Source: Alphaproteobacteria bacterium
GTDB taxonomy: Bacteria > Pseudomonadota > Alphaproteobacteria > Bin95
DNA: 64,000 nt
Direction of reading: 5' to 3'
NCBI GenBank assembly: GCA_964291285.2
Contig: OZ219785.1
Location: 480,001 to 544,000 of the forward strand
Part shown: piece by piece, positions 6,935 through 33,312 of the stretch
Layout: the number at the start of each line of letters is the position of its first letter
How positions within the stretch are numbered: the stretch's first letter is position 1
Notes under the pieces: generated by a model
Told to the model about the DNA's origin: nothing
What the model saw: only the letters and a program-made list of their open reading frames with translations
Databases searched by the model: none
Position numbers and translations under genes: made by a program

Positions 6935-7003
6935 GGCGTCACAGCTCCCCGTCAAAACGGGCCGACGGCTTCGCCGCGCGACGGCCTCCGGCCCGGACAA
7001 AGA

Positions 7004-7031
7004 GAGGGCGCTTCCCTCGGGAAGCGCCCTC
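7004..7031. terminator. Intercistronic stem-loop after aapJ (mRNA stabiliser or partial terminator)
   Basis: Perfect inverted repeat GAGGGCGCTTCCC / GGGAAGCGCCCTC just downstream of the aapJ stop. Confidence 0.6.
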
Positions 7032-7044
7032 GATCACACAGTGC

Positions 7045-8064: not shown

Positions 8065-8260
8065 GGGCTTTCGCTCTCCCGTTCGAGTGCTTCGCACAGC
8101 CGCGCGGAGTCCTGCTGCGTCCCCGCTCGTCAAGGCCGCCCCTGAACTGCCGACGCGGAATGCGCCCGCATGTTACCGACCGGCGCGCGCGTCGGCAACC
8201 GGATGTCCCCGCCCGGACAGGAGTTTCCGGAGAGTTTCCCTGTGACAGCGCGATCAAATT

Positions 8261-10355: not shown

Positions 10356-10387
10356 AACGCGCTTGCCCCCGGCTTGTCAAAACCGGC
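10350..10387 (+). repeat. 38-bp direct repeat, copy 2 (contains ATPase stop codon)
   Basis: GCATGAAACGCGCTTGCCCCCGGCTTGTCAAAACCGGC. Confidence 0.9.
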
Positions 10388-10402
10388 TACGATGGCCCCG
10401 TC

Positions 10403-11122
10403 ATGGCGATGCTCGAAGTCGAAATCTGGCGCGGGGAGGGCGGCGGCGGCGCCTGGCGGCGCTACGCCGTGCCGCACGAGGCCAACCAGACCGTGCTCGA
10501 CGTGGTGACGCATGTGCAGCGCTATCTGGACCCCTCACTCGCCTACCGTTTCGCCTGCCGGGTGGGCATGTGCGGCTCCTGCGCGATGACCGTCAACGGC
10601 CGCCCGCGCTGGACCTGCCGCACCCATGTCTCGCAGGCCGCGCGCAAGGGCCGGGTGCGGATCGGGCCGCTGCGCAACCTGCCGGTCATCAGGGACCTCG
10701 CGGTGGACATGGCGCCCTTCTTCGAGAAATGGCGCGACGCGGAGGCGCGGTTCGTGCCGCCGCCCGCGCCTGCCGAAGAAGCCGTCCGGCCGGACGAGCC
10801 GGGACGCATGGCCGCCGACGCCGGCATCGAGTGCATCAACTGCGCCGTCTGCTACGCCGCCTGCGACAGCGTGGCCTGGAACCCGGACTATCCGGGCCCG
10901 GCCGTGCTGAACCGCCTCTGGACGCTGGTGAACGACCGGCGCGACGGCGACCGCGACGGCCACCTGGACGCAGCCGGGGCGGGCTGCCACCTCTGCCGCA
11001 GCCACCAGGAATGCGCCGACGCCTGCCCGACCGGCCTCAACCCGACGGCCGCCATCGCCGGCCTGAAGCGCGAGGTCTTCCGCCGCGCGCTCGGCGGCGG
11101 CGCGCGGGGTCCGCGCCGATGA
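10403..11122 (+). CDS. Succinate dehydrogenase/fumarate reductase-family iron-sulfur subunit
   Basis: CRVGMCGSC...C (2Fe-2S), CINCAVCYAAC, CRSHQECADACP. Confidence 0.88.
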   Translation: MAMLEVEIWRGEGGGGAWRRYAVPHEANQTVLDVVTHVQRYLDPSLAYRFACRVGMCGSCAMTVNGRPRWTCRTHVSQAARKGRVRIGPLRNLPVIRDLAVDMAPFFEKWRDAEARFVPPPAPAEEAVRPDEPGRMAADAGIECINCAVCYAACDSVAWNPDYPGPAVLNRLWTLVNDRRDGDRDGHLDAAGAGCHLCRSHQECADACPTGLNPTAAIAGLKREVFRRALGGGARGPRR

Positions 11123-11768: not shown

Positions 11769-13525
11769 TCGAGCGCCTCGACCGGGACATACTGATCCTC
11801 GGCTCCGGCGGGGCCGGGCTGTTCGCCGCGCTGCACGCCTACCGCGCCGACCCCGCGCTCGACATCGCCGTCGCAGCCAAGGGCCTGCTCGGCAAGAGCG
11901 GCTGCACCCGCATGGTGCAGGGCGGCTACAATGTGGCGCTCGCGCCCGGCGACAGCCTCGAACGCCATTTCATGGACACGATCGAAGGCGGGGCCTGGAT
12001 CAACCACCAGGAGCTGGCCTGGACGCTGATCGAGGGCGCGGTGGCGCGCATCCGCGAACTGGAAGACGAGATCGGCTGCTATTTCGACCGCAATCCCGAC
12101 GGCAGCATCCACCAGAAGGCGTTCGCCGGCCAGACCTTCGACCGCACCGTCCACAAGGGAGACCTCACCGGCATCGAGATCGTCAACCGGCTGATGGAGC
12201 AGGTCTGGGCGCGGGCGGTGACGCGGCTGGAGGAGCACCGGGCGGCGGCGCTGGTCCCCTCGCGCGACGGCTCCAGGCTCGCCGGCGTGCTGCTGATCGA
12301 CATTCGCACGGGCGTCCTGCGCTTCGTGCGGGCGAAGGCCGTGCTGCTCGCCACCGGCGGCGGCCCGACCATGTACCGCTACCACACCCCCTCCGGCGAC
12401 AAGACCTGCGACGGCATGGCGATGGCGCTGGAGGCGGGCCTGGCGCTGCGCGACATGGAGATGGTCCAGTTCCACCCGACGGGGCTCTATGCCGGCCCCG
12501 GCACGAGGATGACCGGCACCGTGCTGGAAGAGGGCTTGCGCGGCGCCGGCGGCCACCTGCTCGGCGGCGACGGCGCGCGCTTCATGGAGCGCTACGACGA
12601 CCGGCTGGAGCGCGCCACCCGCGACATCGTCAGCCGCGCCATGGCGAGCGAGATGCGTGCCGGGAACGTGACCGAAAACGGCGGGCTCTACATCTCGATG
12701 GCCCATCTCGGCCCCGCCTCGGTGGCCGAGCGCTTCAAGGGCATGGTCGAGCGCTGCCGGGACTGCGGCTTCGACCTCGCCGGCGGGCTGGTCGAGGTGG
12801 TGCCGACCGCGCATTACATGATGGGCGGCGTCGCCTTCGAGCCGGACACGACGACCGCCCTGCCCGGCCTCTACGCCGCCGGCGAGGACACGGGCGGCGT
12901 CCACGGCGCGAACCGGCTCGGCGGCAACGGCGTCGCCAACTCCACCGTCTATGGCGGCATTGCCGGCGACCGGATGGCGGCGGACGCGGCCCGCGAGCGC
13001 GCCTTCCCCGACCCGGACGAGGCGGTGCTGGAGGCCGCCGCCGCGCGCTGCCTGAGGGTCTTCGACCGGCCGCCCGGCGACCTCGCCGGCATCCGCGACC
13101 GGCTCGCGGACCTGATGTGGGACGAGGTCGGCATATTGCGCTCGGCCGGGAGCCTCGAGCGCGCCGAAGCCGGGCTCGCCGCGCTCGCGGCGGAGGTGGA
13201 GGCGGCCGGCGCGCCCGGCGGCCCTACCTTCAACCTCGCCTGGCACGACCGGCTGAACCTGGAAAGCCTCGTGACCGTCTCGCGCGCGATCACGGCGGCG
13301 GCCCGCGCCCGCGAGGACTCGCGCGGCGCACACTACCGCGAGGACTTCCCCGAGACCGGAGACCTCGCCGCCACGCGCTATACCGCCGTGCGTCTGGAGG
13401 ACGGCGAATTCGCCTCCGCTTCGGAACCCGTCGCCTTCACCCGCGTCAGGCCCGGCGAGTCGCTGCTGGACCAGGCCCCGGGACAGGCCGCAGGTCCACC
13501 GGCGGAGCATGATCGTTCAGGTTGA
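11765..13525 (+). CDS. Sdh/Frd/NadB-family flavoprotein
   Basis: GSGGAG, LATGG, QFHPT, RDIVSRA, AHYMMGG, HGANRLGGN, SRGAHYREDFP. Confidence 0.88.
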   Translation: MIERLDRDILILGSGGAGLFAALHAYRADPALDIAVAAKGLLGKSGCTRMVQGGYNVALAPGDSLERHFMDTIEGGAWINHQELAWTLIEGAVARIRELEDEIGCYFDRNPDGSIHQKAFAGQTFDRTVHKGDLTGIEIVNRLMEQVWARAVTRLEEHRAAALVPSRDGSRLAGVLLIDIRTGVLRFVRAKAVLLATGGGPTMYRYHTPSGDKTCDGMAMALEAGLALRDMEMVQFHPTGLYAGPGTRMTGTVLEEGLRGAGGHLLGGDGARFMERYDDRLERATRDIVSRAMASEMRAGNVTENGGLYISMAHLGPASVAERFKGMVERCRDCGFDLAGGLVEVVPTAHYMMGGVAFEPDTTTALPGLYAAGEDTGGVHGANRLGGNGVANSTVYGGIAGDRMAADAARERAFPDPDEAVLEAAAARCLRVFDRPPGDLAGIRDRLADLMWDEVGILRSAGSLERAEAGLAALAAEVEAAGAPGGPTFNLAWHDRLNLESLVTVSRAITAAARAREDSRGAHYREDFPETGDLAATRYTAVRLEDGEFASASEPVAFTRVRPGESLLDQAPGQAAGPPAEHDRSG

Positions 13526-13640
13526 AACAGCAGGGGCACGCCCCCGCATCTCCGCCCGGAAGCCCGGACTCGCACCCGGCCGGGACATGACATCGTACGG
13601 CCCGCCCCACGGTCGGTCCTGTCTTGCCGCCTTTCCGGTC

Positions 13641-13669
13641 TTGGGGAAACCGCCCGCCTCTGTCACAAT
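13641..13669 (+). promoter_or_regulatory. Possible sigma70 promoter for a leaderless smt transcript
   Basis: TTGGGG-17 nt-CACAAT, with only 6 nt between it and ATG 13676; no Shine-Dalgarno visible. Confidence 0.3.
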
Positions 13670-13675
13670 GTTCCG

Positions 13676-14707
13676 ATGACCCGTTCTTCCGCCAAGCGGT
13701 CGAGTTCCCGTTCTCTCGCCAATCTCGCTCCGGACGAAGTGAAATCCGTGGTGGACGGTTACACGGCGATTTACGACGCCGGAGAGCAGGGCAGAAGAGA
13801 GCAATACCGCTCGCTCGTAAATCACTATTACGACCTGGTTACCGACTTCTACGAATTCGGCTGGGGCCAGTCCTTTCACTTCGCGCCAAGGCGCCGGGGC
13901 GAGAGCTTCAAGGCTTCGATGGTCAGGCACCAGCATTATCTCGCCGACCGGCTGGTCCTGAAGCCGGGCATGCAGGTGCTCGATGTGGGATGCGGGGTCG
14001 GCGGACCGATGGGCAACCTGGCGCGCTATTCCGGCGCCGGCTTCGTCGGCATCAACAACAACACCTACCAGATCGAACGCGCGAAACATCACACCCGGGA
14101 TGTCGGGTCGCGGTGCCGCTTCATCCACGGCGACTACATGCGGATTCCCGAAGGCGAGGATTGCTACGACGCCGCGTTCGCCATCGAGTCCATGCCCCAC
14201 GCGCCGGACAAGGCAGGCGCGTTCCGCGAAATCCTGCGCGTCCTGCGCCCCGGCGCCTGTTTCGCGGGTTACGAGTGGTGCCTCACCGATGATTTCGACC
14301 CCGAAAACGCGGAGCACCAGCGGATCAAGAACGAGATCATGGTTGGGGATGCGCTGCCGGAAATCGCGTCCATGCCGGAGATTTGCGACGCATTGCGCAC
14401 CGCCGGGTTCGAGCTGCTGGAAGCCAGGGACCGCGCCCCCGAGTCGGATCCGCAAACGCCCTGGTACCGCGCCCTGCAGGGCCGCGACTTCACGCTTTCG
14501 AGCATCCCGCGCACGCCTTTCGGCCGCGCCCTCACCAATCAGACGCTGCGGGTCGGAGAGAGGCTGCGGCTGTTTCCTGAGGGCTCCCGCGCGGTCAGCA
14601 CGCTGCTGAACGCGGCGGCCGACGCGCTGATCGAAGGCGGCAGGTCCGGCATCTTCACGCCGATGTTCTTTTTCCTGGCCCGCAAGCCTCCGCGCTCCGG
14701 CGACTGA
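13676..14707 (+). CDS. smt: Sterol 24-C-methyltransferase (SMT/ERG6-like)
   Basis: Region I YYDLVTDFYEFGWGQSFHFA, region II VLDVGCGVGGP, GINNNTYQ, region III FAIESMPHAP, region IV YEWCLTD, C-terminal GIFTPMFFFLARKP. Confidence 0.93.
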   Translation: MTRSSAKRSSSRSLANLAPDEVKSVVDGYTAIYDAGEQGRREQYRSLVNHYYDLVTDFYEFGWGQSFHFAPRRRGESFKASMVRHQHYLADRLVLKPGMQVLDVGCGVGGPMGNLARYSGAGFVGINNNTYQIERAKHHTRDVGSRCRFIHGDYMRIPEGEDCYDAAFAIESMPHAPDKAGAFREILRVLRPGACFAGYEWCLTDDFDPENAEHQRIKNEIMVGDALPEIASMPEICDALRTAGFELLEARDRAPESDPQTPWYRALQGRDFTLSSIPRTPFGRALTNQTLRVGERLRLFPEGSRAVSTLLNAAADALIEGGRSGIFTPMFFFLARKPPRSGD

Positions 14708-14742
14708 ACGCCGCGCGTCCTCGGCCGCAGGGCCGCCGGCGC

Positions 14743-17700
14743 TCAGGACAGGGAACGGGCGGAAGCCGCTTCCGGCAGGGGCGGCACCGACGCGCCGGCG
14801 CAGGCAGCAGGGGCGGCGAGGTTCAACCGGTCCCGGCGGCGGCGCTCATAGAGGCTGAGCGCATGCAGCGGGAAATACTGCCGGTAGAGCACGTAATCCA
14901 GGAGCGCCGTCCGGAAGAACACGCCGGCCATGTTCTGTTTGGGCCACCCCCCTTCGGCGTCCTGCGTGTCGAGCAGGAACCGGGCGCCGCGCGACACCGC
15001 GGCCCAGTTCGAGTCGCCCGCCTCGAGGAGCGCGATCAGCGCCCACGCGGTCTGGATGACCTGGCTCTCGCCGTGCGGGACATAGCGGCCGGTCAGGCAG
15101 CCGCTGTGGTGCTCGCCCCATCCTCCGTCTTCCCGCTGGCGTTCCAGCAGCCAGCGGCAGGCCGAGCGCAGCGCCGGGTCGCCGGGACGGGACCCGGCGG
15201 CAAGAAGGCCCCTGATGCCGAACAGGGTGCCGTAAATGAACTGGACGCCCCATACGCCGCGCCAGGAGCCGTCCATCGCCTGCGTCCGGCGCAGCCAGGA
15301 TTCGGCCCGGGAGACGGCGCCCGCCGCGCCGTCCGCGATCTCCGGAAACCGCTCCCTGCACGCGGCGAGCGCGGCGAGGCAGGATGCCGTGCATTCCACA
15401 AAGGAATGCTCCGTCATCGAGTCGCCGAACATCTCGGCCGGATTCAGCCACTCCAGGCCGAAAGCCGAACGCCGCGCCTCATAGCTGCCGAAGCCGCCGT
15501 CGCGGTTCTGGCCGCGCAGCATGAAGGCGACCGCATCGCCGAGCGCCGCCCTGTCGGCGTCGCCGCCCCGTGCCGCGATGAGTCCGAGCACCGCCTCCGC
15601 CGTGCAATCGCTCACCGGCCAGCCATGCCACCCGCCCGCAAAGCACCAGCCGCCCCTGGGGTCGGTTCGATAGGCTTCGCGAAACCCTTCGAAGCTCGTA
15701 TCGATCTGCTCGCCCAGCAGGAAACCGGCGCCGCGCGCGAGCGCGTCCCCGACCCCGGCGGGCTCGGGCAGCGCCGCCAGCGCCTGCAGCGCGAACCCCG
15801 TGTCCCAGGAGGCGCTTCTCGCTCCGGTGACGCGCGCGCCCTCTTCCTCGTCTTCCCAGATCCAGCCGTCCAGCTGCGCGAGCGCCTGCCGGCAGTCGGC
15901 GTCGTCCGGATCGTGCAGCCACAGCGCAAGGATGTTGAGAAGGCCGCTGACCGGGGAGATGCTTGTGTGGCTGGTGGTCTGCAGCTCCCACCTGATGCGC
16001 CCGACAATCGCATCCGTGCATCGCGCGCGGAGGCGCCTGCCGTGAACCCGCTCGAACAGCCGCGCCAGCCCGTATCCGGCCCTGAGCCAGAGGCCCGGCC
16101 TCGCATACAGGTCGGCATCCCGCAGGCGACCCCGGGCAGCGGAGAAGTCAACGCCGGCAAAGCCCTGCGGGAACAGCTCCTCCCGCAGCGATTCGATCAG
16201 CGGCGTGACGGGCGCCTGGAACCGGCGCGCGTAAATCGCCGCCATCGCCATGTAGATGAGCCGCGTGTGGCAGTACCAGTTCGAGGGGTGCAGCGGTATC
16301 CGGCGCGGCAGGCTCCACAGTTCCGGCAGAACCGCGTTCACCCCGCGCCAGTCATAGAGGTTGAGGAGCGCCAGCCAGAATTTTCCCCAGCTCGGAATGC
16401 CGAGAACCCCCTCGGCCTGCAGGAACCGCCGGGCCGGCTCGACCAGGGGATCCTCCCGCCCGACGCCCAGCAGCCTCGCCGCGACATAGACGAGTGCGGT
16501 GACGAACAGGTGAGGCGGCGAGTGCTCGTGCAGGCCCCATGCGCCGCCCTCGAGCCGGGTCCGCTCGAAGGAGCGCAGCACACGCCGGCGGCGGCCCGGT
16601 TCCAGCGGCCGTCCGATTAGATGGTGCAGCAGCGCATATTGCGCGGTGAGCATGGGGCACCAGACCATCTCGCCTTCCCACGCGCCGTCCTCTCTCTGGA
16701 GGCTCAACAGGCGCGCGGCCGCGCTCTTCAATGCCGGACCGGCATCGGGCGATTCGACCTCCTTCGAGCGGGCGGGCCTGGAGGCCTCGCCTCCGGAAGG
16801 CATGGAGTACAGGAACGCGCGGGCCAGGCTGTCCCGGGTTTGCCTGCTTTCTTCCCGGCCCTCGCGACTCGCCTGCCGGAGCTGCCGGACACCGCGCTGG
16901 AGCCACCAGAGGCGAACGGCGAGCGCATTGAAGATGGTCCGGGTCCGATGCGAAGCGAACCGGCGGAAGGAGAACGGAATCTCCCGGGTCAGCGCCCGGG
17001 CCACCGTTCCGCAGAATGCGAGGGTCATGCCGGTCGCGGACCGGTCCTCGCAGGCGAGTATCCGCGTGGTCCGGTCCCGGTACGCGGAATTCGCCCGCCA
17101 GCCCCGGTAGATCGCGGATCTGAGGACCACCGCTTCCACGCGATGATCGGCGAAGACCTCGTAGAGCCCCATTGCGAGGAACTCGGGAATGCGGGTCGCC
17201 CGGAAGCGTTCGGCGGCGAAGTCCCGAAAGCGCTCGTTCTCGGCGAGCGTCAGCGCATCGCCGAACCCGAGTGTCATGCCGACCGCCGTCATGGGATGAT
17301 AGTGCCCGGCGGCGTCGCCGATCAGCACCCGGCGCGGGCTCAGCTGATTGGCCGCCGCATGGAATTGGCCCGCCCGCAACGCCTCGACGAAGGCCGGCCC
17401 GAGAGCCCCCGGCAGCAGCCCGGCGCAGGATTCCGACAGGAAGGCAATCCGGTCCCGGGGCGTCCAGCGGTCCAGCGGAAGATCGACGATGACCCGGACG
17501 CAGCCGTCCGCCAGGCCGTATATGAGGATCGGACCCGGCCCGCCCAGCACCACATGCCCGTAGCCTTCGAAGGGCAGGTCCGCCCCGCCTATGGTGACCC
17601 CCAGCATCCGCGAGCAGAGCATCGGGTCCGTGGAGAGACCCAGCGACTGGCGCACGATCGAGGCCCGGCCGTCGGCGCCGACGACGCGCGCGGCGGTTAT

Positions 17701-18144
17701 GGAGCGCTCATCGCCGCCAACGGAAAAGGCGACCCGCCCGTCATCGACCGCATTGACCCGCGCGTGGGAAATGAAATCGACGCCGGCTTCGTCCGCGATG
17801 GCGTCGCGGAGGCTCGAGACGAGCAGCGCATGGTCGCATGCCAGGCCCCGGGACCCGTCCGGATAGGGAAGCAGGATCGGCTCCGAGCCGTCCTCCGGAA
17901 ACACCACGAATCCCTTGCCCGGCGTGGCTCCGGGCAGCCGGTCCGTGTCTATCCCGATGTCGCGCAATATCCTGACGGCCGGCGGATGCAGCCACTCGCC
18001 GGCCAGGCGCGCCGATGCCCTGGGATTGGCTTCGAGCAGGGCCACCCGGGCGCCCTTGCGCGCATGGGCGAGCGCGCAGAGGCTCCCCACCGGGCCCGCG
18101 CCGACAATGGCTGCGTCGTAAGGCCGCCCGGCGGCACCGCTCAT
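14743..18144 (-). CDS. Squalene epoxidase-oxidosqualene cyclase fusion protein (1133 aa)
   Basis: N-terminal FAD monooxygenase: GAGPVG, LAGEWLHP, GADG, IGDAAGHYHPMTAVGMT. C-terminal OSC: WYCHTR, HGWPVSDCTAE, QW repeats, NPAEMFGD, VECTAS, GVWGVQF. One open frame; ATG overlaps the CYP51 stop (ATGA). Confidence 0.92.
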   Translation of the reverse strand: MSGAAGRPYDAAIVGAGPVGSLCALAHARKGARVALLEANPRASARLAGEWLHPPAVRILRDIGIDTDRLPGATPGKGFVVFPEDGSEPILLPYPDGSRGLACDHALLVSSLRDAIADEAGVDFISHARVNAVDDGRVAFSVGGDERSITAARVVGADGRASIVRQSLGLSTDPMLCSRMLGVTIGGADLPFEGYGHVVLGGPGPILIYGLADGCVRVIVDLPLDRWTPRDRIAFLSESCAGLLPGALGPAFVEALRAGQFHAAANQLSPRRVLIGDAAGHYHPMTAVGMTLGFGDALTLAENERFRDFAAERFRATRIPEFLAMGLYEVFADHRVEAVVLRSAIYRGWRANSAYRDRTTRILACEDRSATGMTLAFCGTVARALTREIPFSFRRFASHRTRTIFNALAVRLWWLQRGVRQLRQASREGREESRQTRDSLARAFLYSMPSGGEASRPARSKEVESPDAGPALKSAAARLLSLQREDGAWEGEMVWCPMLTAQYALLHHLIGRPLEPGRRRRVLRSFERTRLEGGAWGLHEHSPPHLFVTALVYVAARLLGVGREDPLVEPARRFLQAEGVLGIPSWGKFWLALLNLYDWRGVNAVLPELWSLPRRIPLHPSNWYCHTRLIYMAMAAIYARRFQAPVTPLIESLREELFPQGFAGVDFSAARGRLRDADLYARPGLWLRAGYGLARLFERVHGRRLRARCTDAIVGRIRWELQTTSHTSISPVSGLLNILALWLHDPDDADCRQALAQLDGWIWEDEEEGARVTGARSASWDTGFALQALAALPEPAGVGDALARGAGFLLGEQIDTSFEGFREAYRTDPRGGWCFAGGWHGWPVSDCTAEAVLGLIAARGGDADRAALGDAVAFMLRGQNRDGGFGSYEARRSAFGLEWLNPAEMFGDSMTEHSFVECTASCLAALAACRERFPEIADGAAGAVSRAESWLRRTQAMDGSWRGVWGVQFIYGTLFGIRGLLAAGSRPGDPALRSACRWLLERQREDGGWGEHHSGCLTGRYVPHGESQVIQTAWALIALLEAGDSNWAAVSRGARFLLDTQDAEGGWPKQNMAGVFFRTALLDYVLYRQYFPLHALSLYERRRRDRLNLAAPAACAGASVPPLPEAASARSLS

Positions 18145-19550
18145 CGGAAAACGCTCGGCTCCACGCGGCGGCGGTAGCGGACCCGGCACGGCGTCTCGGG
18201 CCCCGTCACCCAGCTGCCGTAATTCGGGCGTGGAAACTTCGGCCCGGCGACGAAGTCGAAGCGGTCGAGCAGAACCGTCCAGATCGCCTTGAGCTGCATA
18301 TAGGCGAAATTCTTGCCCATGCACGCATGTTTGCCGCCGCCGAAGCCGATCAGGGCGTAATGATGTTGCCTGTCCTCGCTGGCGGGCGGCGCGAAACGGT
18401 CCGGGAAGAACCGCTCCGGATCGGCGAAAACCCGGGGCAGGCGGTGGGAAACCGCCGGCGACACCATGGCCATGGTGCCGGCGGGCACGACACTGCCCCC
18501 GTAACGGAGCGGTTCGAGCACCTTCCGGATCAGCAATATCAGCGGCGGGTGCAATCGCTCGCATTCGCGCACGGCGTTTTCCATCGCCGGCTGGCGCTGA
18601 AGGCTGTCGAGGCTCATCGACCCCGCTTCGCGGTAAACCTCCCGCGCCTCCTCCCTCAACCGTGCCAGGTAGGAGGGCGTCCTGAAGAGCTCCAGGCCGG
18701 TCCAGGTCGCGAGCACCGCGCTGGTGTGCTGGCCGGCGAACAGCACGGTCAGCAGGATCCCCGTGATCTCGTCGTTGCTGAGCGCACGGCCGTTCTTGTA
18801 GCGCGCATTCATGAGCGTTTGCATGAAGTCGTCGGGACCGGCCCCGGCATTGCGGCGCGCCGCCATGATTCCACCGAAGAGCTCCGCCACCTTCCGGCGG
18901 GCCCGGTCGCGGCTTCGATGCGCCGGGGTGGGAAGTCTGGGAAGGAAGAATCCGAGCGTGTTGATGCCCTTCTGCAGGTCGTGGTAGGCCTCGGCGAAGC
19001 CGGTATCCACCCGGTCGCGAACCTCCTGCCCGATCAGGCAGCGGCTGGCGATCCTGACGGTGAGCTCGTTCATCGCGTGCGGCAGGTCGATTTCGCCCTC
19101 CCCGCCGAGGGCGTCGGCGAAAGCGCTCGCCTCCTCGAACATGATGAGGGCGAATTTCCGCATGGCGGCTTCGCGGAGCGCGGGAAACAGGAACCCCAGC
19201 TGCTCCGCCATGATTTCCGGCGAGGTGTCATAGGCCACGCCGCGCCCGAAGACGGGCACGGTGAAGCGATAGACCGCCTTGGCGTTCAACTGGGTCTCGG
19301 GCGCCCTGAAATAGAAGTCGTGGGCTTCCGGCCCGGTGAAGAGAACGAAGTCGCGAAGTCCCAGCCTGAAGCGGAAAAGGTCGCCATGCCGGCGCCAGCC
19401 GCGGCTCAGCATGGCGACCGGGTCCCGCTGAAATTCCCTGAGATGGCCGATCAGCGGCCAGCTGCCCGCCAGTTCCGGAACGGGCGCCTCCGACGGCGGC
19501 GGGAGGTCCGCGGACTGCAGCGTCGCCATGCTGTGAGACCGGTTCGCCAT
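18141..19550 (-). CDS. cyp51: Sterol 14-alpha-demethylase (cytochrome P450 CYP51)
   Basis: SRS1 YRFTVPVFGRGVAYD, I-helix FAGQHTS, ECER (ExxR), heme motif FGGGKHACMG. Confidence 0.92.
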   Translation of the reverse strand: MANRSHSMATLQSADLPPPSEAPVPELAGSWPLIGHLREFQRDPVAMLSRGWRRHGDLFRFRLGLRDFVLFTGPEAHDFYFRAPETQLNAKAVYRFTVPVFGRGVAYDTSPEIMAEQLGFLFPALREAAMRKFALIMFEEASAFADALGGEGEIDLPHAMNELTVRIASRCLIGQEVRDRVDTGFAEAYHDLQKGINTLGFFLPRLPTPAHRSRDRARRKVAELFGGIMAARRNAGAGPDDFMQTLMNARYKNGRALSNDEITGILLTVLFAGQHTSAVLATWTGLELFRTPSYLARLREEAREVYREAGSMSLDSLQRQPAMENAVRECERLHPPLILLIRKVLEPLRYGGSVVPAGTMAMVSPAVSHRLPRVFADPERFFPDRFAPPASEDRQHHYALIGFGGGKHACMGKNFAYMQLKAIWTVLLDRFDFVAGPKFPRPNYGSWVTGPETPCRVRYRRRVEPSVFR

Positions 19551-19558
19551 CCCCGTCC

Positions 19559-20659
19559 TCAATGGATGAACGGCAGCATCGAGAAGCGCGCCCGCTGCGT
19601 GTAGCGCTCCCACAGCTCGCCATATTTGGCGCGGCAGCGGCGCTCATCGCGTCTCGAGCGGTGCCACAGGAGACCCGCCAGCCACGCGGGCAGCAGGTAG
19701 GGCCCCCAGGATGCGAGCCCGGTGGTCAGCGCGAAAGCGAGATAGATACAGATCTCGCCGGTATAGTTGAGGTGCCGTCCGATACCCCAGAATCCGGAGA
19801 CCAGGAGGCGCCCGTCCAGGGTCCGGGCGGGTTGCCCCCAGATCCTGATATCGGGGTCGCGCTTGAAGCGGTGCTTCTGCTGGTTGGCGCCGCGGAAGAG
19901 CCAGAAGCCGAAGGCGAACAACAGGACGATGGCCGCCGCGGCGGCCGGAGACAACGGGTCCGGCGCGTGAACCAGCCACCAGCCGGGAAGGCAGTAGAAG
20001 AACGGCACCAGCACGTAGTCGCCCCAGACCAGCATCCATCCGAAGCGCTCGCTGATGATGTCCCAAGTGTGGATCATGCCGTGCTCGAACTGGAAGTAGT
20101 TGAGCACGTAGAGGAAGGTGAACGCCTGATAGAGCGCCATCGCCAGGGTAAGCTCGCCATAGGTTTCCCACTGCACGACGGCGAAGGAGGCGTTGACGAG
20201 CGCCAGACCGATGAGCGAGGGGCGGTAGCTGAAGAGCTTCAGGTCGATCCCGAACCAGACCGGGCCGGCATCGACGCCGCCGAAATAGCCCCGCCAGAAT
20301 CCCGGCGCCGCGCCGGGCGCCCGCATCCCCCGCCAATACAGCCAGCCGGCAAGGGCGAAGGCGAAGGCGTTCGCCGCCACGAACAGGGCGGCGAAGTGGG
20401 TGTAGAGCACCGAAAGGGAGAACCAGCCGAGGAACTGGGCGAGGCCCGCCGCGAGCGCGGCGATCAGGAAGAGCGCGAGGCCGTTCAGCTTGTAGATGCG
20501 CTCATTGCCCTCGGCGTCCGGCCCCGCGATGCGGCGGCCGGGAAGGAGCATCGAACCCAGGAACAGCAACGCGACGAACGCCAGCGCCATTGCCGCCGCT
20601 TCGAGCAGCGCTCCGCCCGACAGCGCGGACGACAGGAGGAACGCTTCAGGCGGGGACAC
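19559..20659 (-). CDS. ERG4/ERG24-family sterol reductase (probably Delta14-reductase)
   Basis: Polytopic membrane protein; TWDIISERFGWMLVWGD, ANQQKHRFK, LLVSGFWGIGRHLNYTGE, RDERRCRAKYG. Confidence 0.88.
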   Translation of the reverse strand: MSPPEAFLLSSALSGGALLEAAAMALAFVALLFLGSMLLPGRRIAGPDAEGNERIYKLNGLALFLIAALAAGLAQFLGWFSLSVLYTHFAALFVAANAFAFALAGWLYWRGMRAPGAAPGFWRGYFGGVDAGPVWFGIDLKLFSYRPSLIGLALVNASFAVVQWETYGELTLAMALYQAFTFLYVLNYFQFEHGMIHTWDIISERFGWMLVWGDYVLVPFFYCLPGWWLVHAPDPLSPAAAAAIVLLFAFGFWLFRGANQQKHRFKRDPDIRIWGQPARTLDGRLLVSGFWGIGRHLNYTGEICIYLAFALTTGLASWGPYLLPAWLAGLLWHRSRRDERRCRAKYGELWERYTQRARFSMLPFIH

Positions 20660-21731
20660 CGCCGTCCCCGGACCCGCGGGCCAGAGTTTCCCGCCACTTG
20701 CGCACCGTCACTTCCTGAAAGGCCCTGACCACGGGATTGAACTCGACGGGGCGGGCGTCCCAGTGTTTCTCGTAACCCTCTTGCTCCGCTTCGAGCGCGA
20801 ACCGGTCCTGGTCGAGCAGGGGGGCGATCAGCATACGGTTGGAGATCTTCATGACCGCGGTCATGGCGAAACGCGGAATGCGCACCGGCAGGAACGGAAT
20901 TTTCAGAGACTTGAAATAGAACAGGAAGAACACCCGGGTGGTGCGCTCGTCCATGGGCAGCACGAACAGCCAGTGCTTGATTGCGTCATCGGTGTTCGAC
21001 CACTGGTAGGGATATTCGTAGCAGAGCTCCATGCGGTTGGTGTTGAGCCGCTCGTGGTCCACGAACAGTCCTGAAATGCGCCCGCGCCCGACCCGGGTAT
21101 CGTAAGCGAGATGCACATTGTCCCCGACGGTTTCGCAGGAGGCGAGCGTGGCTCCGTCGAAGGGCCGGTAGCGGCGGTGCAGATGCGCGTGGGTGAAGTC
21201 GCTCACATTGTCGATCACCATCGAGTGGTGCGCCGACCACGTGAAGCGCAGCGGCACGCAGGTCCAGCGCCCGGGCCCCTCCAGTTCGGGAATCTCCGGG
21301 ATCCGGTGCTGTTCCGCCTGCTCCGGGTCGCCGGGGAAGAGCCACACCAGCCCGTAGCGGACCTTTACCGGGTAGGTCTTGAGCGCAAGCCGCGGAAAGC
21401 TCCGCCCGTTGCCGTCATAGGGAACCCCGGCGGGCCGTTCCCTGCCGCCATATTCCCAGCCGTGATAGGCGCACACCAGCCGGCATCCCTCCACATGGCC
21501 GATGGAGAGCTTGAGCTGGCGGTGCGCGCAGCGGTTCTCGATCGCCTGGAACGAGCCGTCCGTTCCCCGGAACAACGCAATCGAATGTTTCCAGAAGACG
21601 ACCTCGACCACCGTCCCCGGCTTGACCCGGCGCACTTCCTCGACCGCATACCAGTAATTCGGGTCCATGCCCGCGGCGCGCGCCTGCTGGCGGAGCGTGC
21701 CGGCCTCCTCGAAGCAGGGCGGCGGCCTCAT
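20646..21731 (-). CDS. Rieske non-heme iron oxygenase, SdmA-like sterol C-4 demethylase component
   Basis: Rieske CAH...CAYHGW, mononuclear Fe motif DNVSDFTHAHLH; SdmA identity inferred from position in the sterol operon next to an SDR. Confidence 0.75.
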   Translation of the reverse strand: MRPPPCFEEAGTLRQQARAAGMDPNYWYAVEEVRRVKPGTVVEVVFWKHSIALFRGTDGSFQAIENRCAHRQLKLSIGHVEGCRLVCAYHGWEYGGRERPAGVPYDGNGRSFPRLALKTYPVKVRYGLVWLFPGDPEQAEQHRIPEIPELEGPGRWTCVPLRFTWSAHHSMVIDNVSDFTHAHLHRRYRPFDGATLASCETVGDNVHLAYDTRVGRGRISGLFVDHERLNTNRMELCYEYPYQWSNTDDAIKHWLFVLPMDERTTRVFFLFYFKSLKIPFLPVRIPRFAMTAVMKISNRMLIAPLLDQDRFALEAEQEGYEKHWDARPVEFNPVVRAFQEVTVRKWRETLARGSGDGGVPA

Positions 21732-22888
21732 GTCGCGCTCCCGCCGGGCACCGCATGCAAGCCCTGGCGCGGCGCGGGAGGTTCCGCCTCTCTCGCCGCG
21801 CGTTGCTCCGGGGCGTCGGCGCGCGGCGGTTTCGCGGACGGATTTACGATCGCGTTGCGGCCGTGGTGGAACGCGTAGGCTTCGTGAACCGCGTCGCGGA
21901 TGCCGGTCGGCCGGTAGCCGAGCTCGCGCTGCGCCTTGCCGGTGTCGGCATGGCGGCGCTTTTTCAGCAGGCGTATGGCGCCGGGGGTGAAACGCTGGGG
22001 AAAGTCCGGGTGGAAGCGGCTCAGGTAGGAGCTCGCCACTTCCGAAAAGGCGAGCATCAGGGGCGCCGGAATCCGCCGGCGCGGCCTCGGGACGCCCGAG
22101 ACCTCCTCATACAGGCCCACGATCTCCGAGATGGTCTTGTACTCGCTGCTGAAGATGTATTTCTCGCCCGAGCGGCCATGATGCATGCACAGCAGGTGCC
22201 CCTCGACAATGTCGCGCGCCGCGACGAACTCGAACCCGCCATCGATATAGGCATGAAGCTTGCCGTTGGTGTAGTCGCACAGGGTCCTTCCCAGCCGCGA
22301 GGGCAGATAGTCGGCGCCTCCCACCACCGCGCAACAGGTCGCGACCACGACATCCTGCCCCGTGGCCGCCGCGCGCCAGCATTCCTGCTCAACCAGCGAC
22401 TTGCTGCGCTCGTAGGGCATCGTGCGCTCCATGGGATAGAACGGCATCGTCTCGTCGCTGGGCGCGGACGGATCGTCCGGATCGTAACCGACCGCGCTGA
22501 AGGAGCCGGTTACGACCACGCGCCCGGCCTCGGCCTCCCGCGCCGCCTGCAGCACGTTGCGGGTGCCGCGAACATTGCACTCGAACAGCTCCCGGCGATG
22601 GGCGCGGTTGCCCCCGACGGTCGAGATCTTGGCCGCGACATGATAGACGCCCTGACATCCGGCGAGCGCCTGCCTGGTGGCATTCAGGTCCCGGATGTCG
22701 CCGAACACGCGCTCCACATCGAGGCCTTCCAGCGCCTCATTATTGTCCTCATGCCTCAGCAACACCCGGACCCGCACGCCGTCGTCGAGCAGCCGGCGCA
22801 CGAGATTGGCGCCGACATGTCCGGCCGAACCGGTAACGAAAACGGGCGGCATCGACGAACCCGCCGGCATGCTCGACCGGGACGTCAT
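21728..22888 (-). CDS. Extended SDR / 3-beta-HSD-like protein, SdmB-like decarboxylase-reductase
   Basis: VTGSAGHVG, NVRGTRNV, TGS, YERSK catalytic motif; ATGA overlap with the Rieske gene; start may be 22870 or later. Confidence 0.75.
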   Translation of the reverse strand: MTSRSSMPAGSSMPPVFVTGSAGHVGANLVRRLLDDGVRVRVLLRHEDNNEALEGLDVERVFGDIRDLNATRQALAGCQGVYHVAAKISTVGGNRAHRRELFECNVRGTRNVLQAAREAEAGRVVVTGSFSAVGYDPDDPSAPSDETMPFYPMERTMPYERSKSLVEQECWRAAATGQDVVVATCCAVVGGADYLPSRLGRTLCDYTNGKLHAYIDGGFEFVAARDIVEGHLLCMHHGRSGEKYIFSSEYKTISEIVGLYEEVSGVPRPRRRIPAPLMLAFSEVASSYLSRFHPDFPQRFTPGAIRLLKKRRHADTGKAQRELGYRPTGIRDAVHEAYAFHHGRNAIVNPSAKPPRADAPEQRAAREAEPPAPRQGLHAVPGGSAT

Positions 22889-23119
22889 CGCAGCCGCGTT
22901 CCGCTAAAGGGAACGGTGAGCCAGTCTAGTTCCGCGAGACGGGGACGGAGTCTTGCCGACAATGCCGCTCACTCACCGGCCGGTATCGCAACGGCAAGCA
23001 TATCGATTCGAATCCGCGCCTGTTTGCACTCTGAAATATCGCGGGTTCTTCATGCCTATACCTCACATCTTCGAGAAGACCACGGTATCGGCCGACCAAT
23101 ATGAAACCAGACGCCACAA

Positions 23120-23147
23120 AGCGTATCGAAATTTACCTGATTGTCAA
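23120..23147 (-). promoter_or_regulatory. Candidate sigma70 promoter of the sterol operon
   Basis: Minus strand TTGACA-16 nt-TACGCT in an AT-richer patch about 230 nt upstream of 22888. Confidence 0.45.
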
Positions 23148-23318
23148 ATGCAACATGCCTATAACGCTCACCATTCGCCCGGAAAGCGAACGCCCGACCC
23201 GGGAAACCCCCTTGCGTCATCCCGGCCTCAGTCCGCCCCGGCGCCCGGAGCGGCCCGGGCGCCATGCCGAGCACATGAAAAAGCCCTCGAAAACTTCAAT
23301 GTTTCCAATGGCTTTCAG

Positions 23319-23363
23319 TAGTTTCGGGGGCAGGATTTGAACCTGCGACCTTCAGGTTATGAG
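23319..23363 (-). mobile_element. 3' half of tRNA-fMet(CAT), att-like remnant (not an intact tRNA)
   Basis: Reverse complement CTCATAACCTGAAGGTCGCAGGTTCAAATCCTGCCCCCGAAACTA = anticodon loop, T arm and degenerate acceptor 3' strand; 5' half absent. Confidence 0.85.
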
Positions 23364-23489
23364 ACCCGTCTTTATCTTGCGGCCACGCGCGGCCACCGAG
23401 TTCTTTTCTCGTGTTGATCGTTGTGTCGACGGATTTTCCGGCGATCTTACAATGGCGGCATGCCAGAAAAACCCGGAAAACGCGTCGCC

Positions 23490-24682
23490 AGGGTGCGCAC
23501 GACGATTACCAGGCGGGCCGTCGAGGCGTTCCAGCCGGGCACAAGCCCTGGATCTCCTAGGACGACAAGCTGACCGGTTTCGGCGTTCGCATCCAGCCAA
23601 CGGGGACCAAGGTCTTCCTCGTCAACTACCGCGCCGGCGACGGTGGGCGGAAGCGCCCAACAAGCGGGTCGCGATCGGTTACTACGGCAAGGTCACCGTC
23701 GAGCAGGCCCGGAAGCTGGCCCAGAACCTGCTCGGCCAGGTCGCCGGCGGCGCCGGTCCCGCCTATGAACGTGCCAAGGCGCGCGCGATGCCCACCCTCG
23801 GCGAGGCCTTCGAAGAGTACATGGCGGTCAATCCCAACCGTTCGAAACGGACCGGCGAGCTCTACCGTTACGAGGCGAACCGCTACCTGGGCGACTGGCT
23901 CACGCGCACTCTCGACTCCATTGCCCGCCGGGATGTCGAGATGAGGTTCAACAGCATCACCGCGGACCATGGATGGTCACCGGCCAACCGGGCAATTTCA
24001 TTGCTGCGCTCCGTCTATCGCCGGCCCTGCGTCGACTACGAAGGGCTGCGTCCCCCTGGAGCTTCCGACCACCCGGCAACTCGCGGTCATTCTCGAGCGC
24101 CGGCAGGCCGAGGCCGGCGACTACCCGGTCGAGGCCCGCGGCTGGGCGTTCCCCTCGCGCACCGCCGCCACCGGCCATGTTCAGGACCCGGATCACCTCT
24201 AATACCAACGGTCGTTGATTGGAACCTATAGCAGAGCCTCCCTCCGCAGCTCGCCCCCTGAGCCGAGGCCTCCTACTGCAAGAGGTAATCTCCGCCGAGA
24301 GAGGCTAATCGGTTCTTATCTGTGGCCGGTGGTATAAGCCCGCATCGGCAAGACCGGCGGCACCAAGTTCTGGTTCCACGGGCTGCGGAACAGTTTCATC
24401 ACCGTGGCCGAGCGCGAGCTGATGCTGCCGCCCTCACTGGCCAAGCGGCTGGTCAACCACGCCCGGCCCAACGATGTCACCGAGGGCTATGCGGCCGACT
24501 GGACCATCGCGCAGCTTCGGGAGCCGGCTCAGAAGATCGCCGACCGGATCGAGGTCTTGACCCGAGAGCCGCAAGCTCCCTGGCCAGTGCCCGCGGCAAC
24601 TCGGCTGAGGCTGTCGGAACTCTCGAACCGTACCGCGAGCCATCGCTGCGGCCGTGCCCCTACCACCGCACCGAGCCCCTGA
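23490..24682 (+). pseudogene. Degraded tyrosine integrase (arm-DNA-binding plus catalytic domains)
   Basis: Fragments in several frames: (TAG)DDKLTGFGVRIQPTGTKVFLVNYR, KRVAIG...VEQARKLA, WAFPS, FHGLRNSF, LVNH...TEGY; premature stop, frameshifts, internal deletion, insertion; 5' boundary approximate. Confidence 0.85.
24203..24334. mobile_element. 132-bp MITE / internally deleted IS (IS630-like ends)
   Basis: Imperfect terminal inverted repeats (TACCAACGGTCGTTGATTGGAACC vs TACCACCGGCCACAGATAAGAACC), TAA on both sides; removal rejoins the integrase frame. Confidence 0.7.
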
Positions 24683-27600
24683 GCGTCGCGCCGTGCTCGG
24701 CCGGATCGGCGGCGCTCTTGCTCCGCGTGCCTTCGAGACCCAGGCTCACATTGGGCGCGAGGTTCCAGCGCGCGCCCGCGCGCCACGTGCGCGCGTCGTC
24801 CCCGGCCAGCCCGAGCGCCGCATAGGGCGTCAACACCCCGAGGCCCGCCGGGCCGCCGAGCCCGTAGCCGACCTCCGCGTCCAGGCGGCTCGACAGCTCC
24901 GCATTGTCGTTCGCGGCCAGCGCGTAAGCGTCCGGCATCGTCCACAGCCGCTCCGAGCCGCCCGCGTCCGCCCCCCAGGACGGCGTGAGCGACAGCGTCA
25001 GGCCGCGCCCCTCGCCGCCCGGCTCGAGCCTGAACGAGCCCGACACGCCCCATTCGCGGTAGCCGTCCCCGGCGTGCCCCGCAAGACCGTGCACGCGAAG
25101 CGCCATGTCCAGGCCCCGCGACGGGTCCGCGTAGCCGACACCGGCGCCGAGCTCCATGCCCCTCCCGGTCTCCGCGTCGCCCCCGTCATGGCGCACACCG
25201 AGCGCCACCGACGGCGTCAGGGTGCCGCCCGCGAGCGCGAACGTCCGCGAGCCGTCGAGCACCGCCCGCACCCGGCTCGCATCGGCACGCGCGCCCGCGA
25301 GGTTCCCCGCGCCCGGCGCAGACACCGCCTCCGACTCCGTGCGCACCCAGAACGCATCCGCCTTCAAGGCCAGCGCGAACCCGCCCGCCTCGGCGGGCGT
25401 CACCAGCTCGCCCCGCACGCCCGCCGCCGCCAGCGTCATCGACAGGTCGGCGGCGTAGCGCTCCGCCGCGCCGCCGTCGAGGTCCAGCGTCAGTTCGCCG
25501 GAGCCCGTGCCCGCCAGACCCCACGCCGACACCCGCTCCGAGAGCGCGAGCCGCGCATAGGGAAGCATCGTCGTGACCGAACTCCCCATCAGGTAGCTCC
25601 GCTCCGCTCCATGCGCCGTGCCCTCGGCGAGGCTGTGCGTCATCGCGAACCCGGTCAGCAGGCGGCCATACTCGTAGTCCATGCCCATCGCCCCGGTCGC
25701 CGACTCGCCGCTCAGACTGAGCCCGGGAACGGCGCCCGAGAACCGCGACACCGACGCGCTCTGGCCCCAGCTCGTGAACTGCGACCCCGCGCCCTGCCCG
25801 AGCACCGCGCGGAACGACGTCCCCATCAGCAACGCGCGCGCGTCCATCGTCCGCGACGTGCCCGCGTCCGGGTCCTCCGACCAGGCCAGCCAGTCCGCGC
25901 TACCCGCCGGCGTCGGCGGCAGTCCGGCGCCGGAGCCGTCCAGCGACAGGCGATGTCCGCCCAGCGTCACGTGCGAGCCCGCCTCGCGCGGCGTCTCCAG
26001 GCGCGCCGTCACCGCCGCGACGGTGTCGGACGCCACCGTGCGCCCGAAGCGCGCGAGCCACGCAGCCGGTATCGGGTCGCTGTTCTGGATCGTGCCCGTC
26101 GCCTGGGCCCGGCCGATGTCGATGGTCTTCGATGCGTCGTTGCACAGCTCCGCGTTGCTGATCTTGACCTTCACCGTCTCCCCGGGGTCGTTGATAGCGT
26201 CATCCAGGATGTATACAAACTCGGTCCACTCGGTCACCCCGGCCTGCTGCCACAGCGTCGACTTCGGGCGCGCCAGGAAGTCCTCCCCCTCGGTCGCCGT
26301 GCCCGTGGTGAGCGTCTCGAAGTCGTAGCAGACATTGTCTTCGAGCGGCCGCGACAGCGTGACGGTGAAGTGCATGAAGCCGTTGCGCTCCCGCATGCTC
26401 GTGTCCTCGATGCGGAGGTTCACGTTCGGCACCGCCGTCGTGCTGGTCGTCGGCGCATCGATCGTCCCCGTCGCTTCGGCCGTGGTGATCGTCAGCGGCC
26501 CGAACGCCGTCCCGCGGTCGGTGACGACCCGCGCATTGCTTATCTCCACCTTCACCGTCTCGCCCGCGTCGCTCGCGGTATCCTCGATCAGCCCTACCGG
26601 GGCCGCCACGGTCGTCTCCCCCGGCCGGATGAACTTCGTCGTATCGACGACCGGGCGGTAATCGGCGTTTGCGGTGGCGGTGCCGCCCGCAATGGTCCTG
26701 TAGTCAAACGCGATGCGCGACTGCGTGGCCCGCGACAGGGTGACGTCGAAATTGAGAACGCTGGTGTCCTCGGTTGCGCTCGCGTTTGCGATCGAGAGGC
26801 TCGGCAGGTTGCTGCCGTCGAACGGGGCCGTATCGGGGGTCAGGGTCAGCACCGGCGGGCTGGTGAGCTGAACCGTCCCGTCGCACAATGCGCCCTGCTC
26901 GCTGCAGGGGCGGTTGCCCCGCAGCGTGACGGTGACGGGCTTCGTCTCGTCGTCGGCGACCGCCGTCATGCGCCAGTGGTTGCTGTAGAGGCGCTGCTGC
27001 CCCCCCTCGGTCCTGCGGTCCTTGTGGATGCGCTTCGCCTCGGCCATGTACCCGTTCGTCACGCTGAAGGCATGATCGCGCATATCCTGGAACGGAATCG
27101 CCACGGCCTCGGACAAGGTGAGCTCGAACCGGTAGAACAGGTTCCGCCCGACGAAGGATTCGGGAGAGGCGAGCGTCGCCGTGAAGTGCGACAGGACGCT
27201 GCCCTTCACGTTCATCCTGATGGAATTAGGGCCGGACCTGTTTCCGCTAAGCCGGTAAGAGTCTTCGATCGACCATCCTTCGGCGCCCGTCTGGGCATCG
27301 CTGCCAAGAATACCTAGTTGCAAATCGGCCCCGTCGTTGCCTGTGCTAACGAAATTCACCAAATACCTGGTATTCGGAAGTAATAAGGCGCCCTGAAGTT
27401 TCTTACTCCATTCCCATTCAGCGGAGACGGAGTGCTCAGCGTGGCCACCAGATCTCCCACTTTGTTGGGAGCGCTGTTGTCGAACCTGTGAATCGACACC
27501 GTAACCGTCTCGCCACTCGAAAAGTAGTTCCGGTGAATGTGGAGCCCAACGGAACTCACCTCGTAGCCCGCGGCGTTCCCGGTGTTGAATCCCTGCGTCA

Positions 27601-33114: not shown

Positions 33115-33312
33115 GCTCTCGCTCCCATGCCGTGCCGGCAGCCCTGACATGACCGTGACATCGAGTGGTGCAACCGTCTGCCTTTCGGGAAAGAATGCAC
33201 CCCGAGGGGGAGGAACGGAACCCCCCAGGGCGAATTAATTGTCTGCCTTTGGGCCATGTTGAGGTGGGGTCCGGGGTGGCTATTTTTTTCTTGATATGGC
33301 AGTGTGCCGGTC

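Follow-up and report, generated by a model that had tools for sequence, protein, structure and literature searches.

Sterol gene clusters are known from bacteria associated with sponges. Working on Ircinia symbionts, Kelly et al. (2022, PMC9531527) reported "clusters of steroid genes" (CSGs) in 115 of 537 sponge metagenome-assembled genomes (MAGs), spread over 11 classes and 10 phyla that include the Alphaproteobacteria. In their description, the CSG core ERG24-CYP51-LSS has before it, on the same strand, a dihydroflavonol-4-reductase (DFR) along with a hypothetical protein, and SMT1/ERG6 or FDFT1 lies on the opposite strand at the 3' end; the gene trees conflict with the genome tree, and gene transfer was reported. 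Brown et al. (2023, PMC10070321) described sterol 24-C-methyltransferases (SMTs) whose genes lie together with sdmA and sdmB in metagenomes of sponge symbionts, mentioned fused squalene monooxygenase/oxidosqualene cyclase (SMO/OSC) homologs in their Methods and found the OSCs associated with these SMTs in bacterial groups. Here, we analyzed a stretch of 64,000 nucleotides (the window) from an alphaproteobacterial genome, G000, where it occupies positions 480001-544000 of contig C1. Positions 13676-22888 of the window hold a six-gene sterol cluster, in which a plus-strand SMT gene converges on a minus-strand operon of sdmB, sdmA, an ERG24-type reductase gene, CYP51 and a gene fusing a squalene monooxygenase (SQMO) to an OSC. 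Most likely, this region is a functional, horizontally spread sterol cassette of the kind known from sponge-associated bacteria.

The gene order in the window matches the one described by Kelly et al. (2022), with the same orientations; the DFR of the CSGs corresponds to the window SdmB and their hypothetical protein to the window SdmA. Measured against the main text of that paper, nothing essential differs, although SdmA, SdmB and the SQMO domain are unannotated there ("squalene" occurs in its reference list only) and no cassette borders are given. The clusters of Brown et al. (2023), as described in the portions of the paper considered, resemble the window in combining an SMT with sdmA/sdmB and other sterol genes and in having the fused SMO/OSC. 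Clusters of this kind and architecture, also in Alphaproteobacteria, are thus already known, as are their horizontal spread, the combination of SdmAB with SMT and the SMO/OSC fusion. A preliminary description of this DNA had stressed the joining of bacterial C-4 demethylation to side-chain alkylation in one locus. This combination is already in print in the two papers, and the window is a further example of a published sponge-symbiont cluster, not a discovery. Our search of the literature since 2023 for sdmA/sdmB together with SMT in MAGs returned Brown et al. (2023) only, and that for Defluviicoccus, sponge and sterol returned one unrelated survey. By title and abstract, no paper devoted to an SQMO-OSC fusion was found.

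Bacterial sterol producers outside this group are less similar. Methylococcus capsulatus provides the best PDB match of the window CYP51, and it shares with the window the SdmAB pair and a Delta14 reductase of the methanotroph type (4QUV). Its CYP51 is fused to a ferredoxin, whereas no ferredoxin domain is fused to the window CYP51. Unlike M. capsulatus, the window has an SQMO-OSC fusion, an SMT, and SdmA and SdmB proteins that score below the equivalog cut-offs. Methanotrophs are not known to alkylate C-24. Calothrix and Enhygromyxa, as far as Lee et al. (2023, PMC10202945) describe them in the text considered, have SdmAB-type C-4 demethylation like the window, there combined with eukaryote-like enzymes; they make cholesterol-type sterols with desaturase, isomerase and reductase steps, whereas the window genome gave no match to the isomerase EBP and has an SMT.

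The open reading frame (ORF) listing and searches of Pfam, NCBIfam and PDB confirmed the six genes of the preliminary description, all with intact frames and family motifs (Table 1). Counting SQMO and OSC separately, the cluster has seven parts. The genes are intron-free and overlapping, by 4 nt between sdmB and sdmA, by 14 nt between sdmA and ERG24 if the latter starts at the GTG at 20659, and by 4 nt (ATGA) between CYP51 and the fusion gene. The fourth junction, ERG24/CYP51, is probably a short gap, with the likely CYP51 ATG at 19550 placed 8 nt past the ERG24 stop, which is consistent with an earlier count of three overlaps in four junctions. The stops of the convergent SMT and fusion genes are 35 nt apart. 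In the long fusion ORF, the FAD domain begins at residue 150 and the ATG at 18144 forms the overlap with the CYP51 stop, so the gene is most likely the shorter version listed in Table 1.

Table 1. Genes, domains and leader of the sterol cluster (window positions).
Feature	Position	Strand	Remarks
SMT/ERG6 family	13676-14707	+	343 aa; Pfam Sterol_MT_C and Methyltransf_11
SQMO-OSC fusion	ORF 14743-18564, likely gene 14743-18144	-	1133 aa
SQMO domain, N-terminal part of fusion	17110-18144	-	Pfam FAD_binding_3 and SE
OSC domain, C-terminal part of fusion	14743-16728	-	SQHop_cyclase_N/_C, TIGR03463
CYP51	ORF 18141-19613, likely gene 18141-19550	-	469 aa; Pfam p450
ERG24-type Delta14-sterol reductase	19559-20659	-	366 aa; Pfam ERG4_ERG24
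SdmA-like Rieske oxygenase	20646-21731	-	361 aa; NCBIfam NF052579
SdmB-like short-chain dehydrogenase/reductase	21728-22888	-	386 aa; NCBIfam NF052578
Non-coding leader upstream of sdmB	22889-23320		travels with the cluster

Family assignments for all six proteins came from the three databases, and the gene identities and the pathway order proposed earlier were supported. The SQMO part is a squalene monooxygenase by its Pfam matches (FAD_binding_3, 70.9 bits; SE, 66 bits with a cut-off of 20.1) and matched human squalene monooxygenase 6C6N with an E-value of 3e-24. The OSC part matched SQHop_cyclase_N (162 bits) and SQHop_cyclase_C (184 bits) in Pfam and scored 735.5 bits with the NCBIfam model TIGR03463 (osq_cycl) vs 264.6 bits with that of hopene cyclase. 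Likewise, it scored 439 bits against human lanosterol synthase 1W6K vs 193 bits against squalene-hopene cyclase, and its VSDCTAE motif aligns to the human catalytic D455. A genome search found this cyclase only and no squalene-hopene cyclase in G000, and hence no hopanoid route. For CYP51 (Pfam p450, 193 bits), the 56 best PDB sequences were all CYP51, led by M. capsulatus 6MCW (E 3.5e-105), and the first non-CYP51 P450 appeared at 3.7e-40. Its translation contains FGGGKHACMG, which we take to be the heme-binding stretch, and GQHTS in helix I, both presumably CYP51 signatures. The ERG24-type reductase scored 233.4 bits with Pfam ERG4_ERG24 and matched the bacterial Delta(14)-sterol reductase 4QUV at E 4.5e-64; its place beside CYP51 suggests Delta14 regiospecificity.

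The two proteins at the head of the operon are less sharply defined. The SdmA-like protein (Pfam Rieske and VanA_C) matched NF052579, the 4beta-methylsterol monooxygenase SdmA, with 402.2 bits over profile positions 5-342 of 351, the next family reaching 34.9 bits. The SdmB-like protein (Pfam Epimerase and 3Beta_HSD, with GxxGxxG and YxxxK in the translation) matched NF052578, SdmB, sterol demethylase protein, with 294.3 bits, followed by HpnA with 238.2 bits. Since both scores lie below their 600-bit equivalog cut-offs, we treat the two proteins as homologues placed by context rather than as certified equivalogs. The first is a clear SdmA homologue, encoded in a sterol operon that is conserved, although it falls short of equivalog status under the curated threshold, and the assignment of the second as SdmB rests on its position adjoining SdmA.

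To compare the cluster with others, one genome per prokaryotic species was scanned, which gave 201 SMT relatives, and the best 80 (71-96% identity) were analyzed as loci. By record title, these belong to Alphaproteobacteria (31), Gammaproteobacteria (18), Nitrospirota (10), Gemmatimonadota (5), Acidobacteriota (4), Binatota (2), Rhodothermota (2), Nitrospinota (1), Thermodesulfobacteriota (1) and Verrucomicrobiota (1), while 5 are unplaced or carry a phylum name only. Many of them are part of megabase contigs or chromosomes. In 54 of the 80 loci, representing eight named phyla, none of the seven parts was missing within 10 kb, with amino-acid identities of 59-98% per part. The arrangement is convergent as in the window in 36 of these complete loci, in 11 the SMT gene comes after the operon and points the same way, and 7 have other orders. 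Because the same parts recur in public loci, in the same order in two-thirds of the complete ones and in other orders in the remaining 18, the six-gene pattern is not one of chance ORFs.

A FastTree phylogeny of the six operon parts, SMT left out (55 rows, 2682 columns), assigned the window to a starred clade whose 22 rows are all alphaproteobacterial by title. Nitrospirota, Acidobacteriota and Rhodothermota formed one clade each, and the seven phylum labels required no more than 6 changes on the tree, the lowest number possible. Together with an identity of about 80% between phyla, this topology indicates a few old inter-phylum transfers followed by descent within symbiont lineages. The alphaproteobacterial host named in the preliminary description is supported by the titles of public records: congeners match entries titled Alphaproteobacteria bacterium (for example, G006:C59:8616-9635 is locus L009 and G007:C3 is locus L012), and relatives at a slightly greater distance bear the titles Defluviicoccus sp., Rhodospirillales or Rhodospirillaceae. 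Two sequencing runs labelled sponge metagenome yielded contigs with cluster pieces at an identity of at least 99% (155 of 721 and 69 of 329). Moreover, a metagenome scan found a JGI contig (L100) with an Aplysina aerophoba prefix, on which an SMT gene 92% identical to that of the window adjoins the same fusion gene. The prefix is assigned to this sponge by Brown et al. (2023); the L100 SMT is not named in the main texts of the papers cited here, and no functional link to an assayed SMT is claimed.

Read from the sequence, the chemical steps, the order of substrates and the products would be as follows. Squalene would probably come from the product of a divergent squalene-synthase-like gene that lies on a different contig. 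It would be epoxidised by the FAD monooxygenase domain at the N-terminus of the fusion protein, and the C-terminal cyclase domain would cyclise the epoxide to lanosterol. CYP51 would then take off the 14-alpha methyl, and the ERG24-type reductase would saturate the Delta14 bond left by this demethylation. SdmA, through C-4 methyl oxidation, and SdmB, through C-4 decarboxylation and 3-keto reduction, would remove one or both C-4 methyls, and the convergent SMT would add one, possibly two, carbons at C-24. Delta8 sterols would be expected as products, their side chain carrying a 24-methylene or 24-methyl group, or possibly a 24-ethyl group. The loss of a single C-4 methyl, as first proposed, could not be upheld: in the portions of Lee et al. 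(2023) considered, the SdmAB of methanotrophs removes one methyl, that of Calothrix removes both, and SdmC is also needed in Enhygromyxa, so the number of C-4 methyls removed is not predictable from sequence.

The observations that weigh against a working pathway concern family thresholds, absent partners, cyclase residues and the state of related loci. The TIGR03463 score of the OSC is below the curated cut-off of 851, and the SdmA and SdmB scores fall short of theirs, as given above. The cluster contains no electron-transfer partner for CYP51 or SdmA. A search of G000 for the C-8 isomerase EBP gave no match, which is why Delta8 end products are expected; the ERG2 search gave no match in any control genome either and hence carries no information on ERG2 in G000. 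Finally, some SMTs with all conserved residues were inactive in vitro, according to the part of a preprint considered (Brown and Welander, 2025, 10.64898/2025.12.19.695621).

The squalene supply gives rise to an alternative to a complete pathway. The bacterium could take up squalene or sterol intermediates from its host and only modify them, for instance by methylating host sterols at C-24. The cluster itself contains no squalene synthase. G000 has two SQS_PSY-family genes, and the one closest to squalene synthase (C2:1270945-1272081), the sole candidate, is divergent: its top NCBIfam match is TIGR01559 with 118 bits, below the cut-off of 287, and it has no counterpart within 10 kb of the SMT gene in the 80 loci (E <=1e-15). 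Some congeners have an SMT with no OSC found, namely G012, with three divergent SMT paralogues (45-51% identity), and G001, with an SMT of the window type. In the portions of Brown et al. (2023) considered, an OSC was found for only 13 of 24 tested SMTs. On the other hand, the full set of SQMO-OSC, CYP51, ERG24 and SdmAB present here is needed only when starting from squalene, and the top PDB matches of the squalene-synthase-like gene are eukaryotic squalene synthases (about 1e-17 to 1e-18). We therefore regard a purely modifying role as unlikely. The term "de novo" used in the preliminary description would require a squalene synthase, for which the genome offers only this divergent candidate outside the cluster.

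The product of the cyclase leaves room for a second alternative, in which cycloartenol, parkeol or an arborane-type triterpenol is formed instead of lanosterol and leads to different end products. At the positions equivalent to human 381, 449 and 453, the window OSC has Ala, His and Val. The first two depart from the classical lanosterol-synthase triad, which has Thr and Cys/Gln there, so that side products are possible, and His449 is the state found in cycloartenol synthases. Val453 points the other way. In the parts of Wei et al. (2016, PMC4919349) considered, V453 tracks lanosterol and I453 cycloartenol in all bacteria tested, a complete correlation that nonetheless makes a single-residue rule resting on few bacteria. 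The A/H/V residues were found in 57 of 57 related loci with an OSC match and the A/H/V/D signature in 56 of them; of the 57 loci holding both SQMO and OSC, 56 have them in a single open frame. CYP51, ERG24 and SdmAB are also the enzymes expected downstream of lanosterol-type products. A different cyclase product thus appears quite improbable. The cyclase is predicted to be of the lanosterol type, with lanosterol as the best guess and some doubt from His449.

For the last predicted step, the SMT scored 76.9 bits with Sterol_MT_C (cut-off 21.7) and 61.6 bits with Methyltransf_11 in Pfam. Its best match in the PDB sequence set, which holds no ERG6 or other true SMT structure, was MitM (3.3e-21). 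Positions of ERG6 were mapped through the conserved anchors of Brown and Welander (2025) rather than by direct alignment to ERG6, with offsets of 22, 24, 23 and 30. By this mapping, all 25 residues conserved in functional SMTs are present in the window SMT, including Region I (GWGxxFHF, here within YEFGWGQSFHF) and Region II (DxGxGxxGP). Tyr59, Phe61 and Asp225 correspond to ERG6 positions 81, 83 and 249, and the last of these is flanked by the anchors G217 and G268, which share the offset 24.

These residues bear on the number of carbons added. In the portions of the literature considered, 8 of 10 sponge-symbiont SMTs methylate desmosterol in vitro and three bacterial SMTs form the 24-isopropyl side chain (Brown et al., 2023), Phe at position 81 or 83 favours sequential methylation, and Gly at position 249 is required in propylating SMTs, though not enough by itself, G249D removing the C30 products (Brown and Welander, 2025). 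Unlike the propylating SMTs, the window SMT has Asp, not the required Gly, at position 249, which argues against 24-isopropyl products. We predict C28 products, perhaps C29, and consider 24-isopropyl sterols unlikely. Among the 80 related loci, Asp occupies position 249 in 55, Asn in 21, Thr in 2 and Gly in 1. The only locus with Gly (L035, SMT at 10001-11020), in a record titled Nitrospira sp. bin75, also has F81/F83 and a complete cluster; these residues form the pattern that the preprint, in the part considered, ties to 24-isopropyl sterol formation.

The state of related copies raises the possibility that this genome carries the cluster as cargo that is silent or in decay. An OSC was found in only 9 of the 17 genomes of the genus. 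An SMT of the window type is present in G006, G016, G007, G002, G010 (C2:2882017-2883033, with one in-frame TAA) and G001 (in two pieces). In G008, the OSC operon is kept at 91% identity (C1:2348530-2350530), and the SMT is a 59-residue remnant (C1:2350575-2350751). In L012, an insertion sequence (IS)-like element of about 1.9 kb (13984-15902) interrupts the SQMO part and the cyclase frame is cut to 987 aa; copies of this element occur in G000 at C1:803194 and C4:513563. L068 has Gly in place of the catalytic Asp of its OSC (D455G; 6921-8849), and six loci (L006, L017, L032, L033, L038 and L044) have one in-frame stop each, located in SMT (twice), ERG24, OSC, CYP51 and SdmB. The stops and D455G may be either pseudogene marks or assembly errors. 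Within a single genus, parts of the cluster are still being gained, lost and degraded. In the window, by contrast, all six frames are intact and keep their motifs, and Kelly et al. (2022), in the text considered, reported low omega values (0.13-0.26) for three CSG genes, that is, purifying selection. Logan contigs of two RNA libraries covered 30 of 30 and 25 of 30 bins at an identity of at least 90%, mostly in the 90-95% class. Contigs 90-99% alike cover all genes, which speaks only weakly for expression, as they show related clusters in RNA libraries and not transcription of this operon. Altogether, we find it very improbable that the window copy is silent or decaying.

We also investigated how the cluster sits in its genome. 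G000 measures 6.13 Mb in 5 contigs (100% complete, 4.77% contamination), and the contig carrying the window is 1.24 Mb long. To the left of the cluster are genes for an AAA protein and for FrdB and FrdA, which are fumarate-reductase/succinate-dehydrogenase-like. The DNA of this flank is 89-93% identical in all five congeners tested and hence belongs to the backbone of the genus. It ceases to match the congeners at 13471-13593, around the FrdA stop at 13525, and in the congeners its counterpart lies far from their cluster or on another contig. BLASTN comparisons of the loci of eight close relatives with G000 gave homology limited to C1:493610-503363 at most (window 13610-23363) and ending mostly at 502915 (window 22915), and the flanks of these loci mapped elsewhere in G000 with up to 97% identity. 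On the right side, only a stretch of 340-464 nt directly after sdmB accompanies the cluster, as seen at 76-79% identity in G006, G007 and G008; the remaining right flank is non-syntenic, patchy and repeat-rich. The cluster therefore behaves as a relocating cassette of about 9.7 kb, found at a different chromosomal site in every close relative examined. The leader has a GC content of 0.576 (over 22889-23400) vs 0.68 in the cluster, and a simple scan revealed no promoter-like site in it. Promoter and terminator scans gave counts at chance level (1 vs 0.8 expected and 9 vs 6.5). The direct and inverted repeats found at the cluster flanks are all short and of low identity, none of them convincing, and the block includes no mobility genes.

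Sterol genes are as a rule eukaryotic, and the cluster changes place among congeners, but an assembly chimera or contamination from a sponge or alga is hardly conceivable and was rejected, since the cluster GC content (0.68) equals that of the five contigs (0.678-0.686) and the left flank is genus backbone, which excludes the chimerism at the cluster borders that had been named as a possible refutation, while the genes are overlapping and intron-free, include the bacterial SdmAB, and occur on multi-megabase contigs or chromosomes of other bacteria.

Next to the right border, 23321-23363 (-) contains about 43 nt resembling the 3' half of a tRNA, with acceptor end, T-arm and an apparent CAT anticodon loop, which match congener tRNA genes at 94-98% identity; ARAGORN and Rfam found no complete tRNA in the window. 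Integrase-like remnants with broken frames follow at 23359-24700 (+) (Arm-DNA-bind_3, 27.2 bits with a cut-off of 27). Together, the fragment and the remnants look like a decayed integration site bordering the sterol cassette. A complete tRNA-Met lies upstream of SMT in two gammaproteobacterial loci, L058 (9862-9935, directly upstream) and L051 (826-902), echoing the tRNA-Met-like fragment beside the window cluster. Further to the right, the 24.6-35 kb region shows little conservation in congeners and encodes a Calx-beta repeat protein, a LuxR-type regulator and a subtilase. The ORF at 33304-35100 (+) encodes 598 aa; its N-terminal part is DruA-like (Druantia defence family, 70 bits) and is joined to DDE transposase domains.

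Elsewhere in the genome, we found a second, unlinked reductase gene of the ERG4/ERG24 family (G000 C4:575557-576756; L094:9558-10757, -), whose product is 33% identical to the cluster ERG24 and scored 131 bits against 4QUV. Orthologues with 81-96% identity are present in G006, G007, G002, G016 and G010, that is, in five of the six congeners with a window-type SMT, the exception being G001. G014 has fragments, and none was found in the other 10 congeners, including G008, which kept the operon and lost the SMT. In two Gemmatimonadota loci (L053 and L054), orthologues with 71-72% identity lie 5-9 kb from the SMT gene. As the genomes with the second reductase are kin, its co-occurrence with SMT is a hint and not a statistic. 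The PDB comparison set for this protein holds Delta14 reductases only, and its protein-atlas matches were confined to ERG4/ERG24 clusters, one of them named 7-dehydrocholesterol-reductase-like. The gene is unmentioned in the main texts of Kelly et al. (2022) and Brown et al. (2023). We tentatively propose two extensions, both doubtful but possible. In the first, the pathway would continue past the six genes, with the second reductase acting as a side-chain C-24(28) or Delta7 reductase; this would lead to saturated 24-methyl sterols, the direct precursors of ergostane-type steranes. In the second, the six genes and the leader of about 430 nt would form a discrete relocating cassette that lacks mobility genes and terminal repeats. 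The genome also has two FA_hydroxylase genes.

What the window adds to the published clusters is a high-contiguity alphaproteobacterial genome with an intact copy and clear cassette borders, a residue-based prediction against 24-isopropyl sterols and a candidate extra reductase. The residue-level predictions, the borders and the second reductase are modest additions, and the cluster is useful material for heterologous reconstitution rather than a new concept. The relevance to sterane biomarkers stated in the preliminary description is supported, and this question has already been pursued with this cluster type (Kelly et al., 2022; Brown et al., 2023; Brown and Welander, 2025). Side-chain-alkylated steranes serve as fossils of eukaryotes and early sponges, and bacterial routes to such side chains, of the kind predicted here, weaken that inference.

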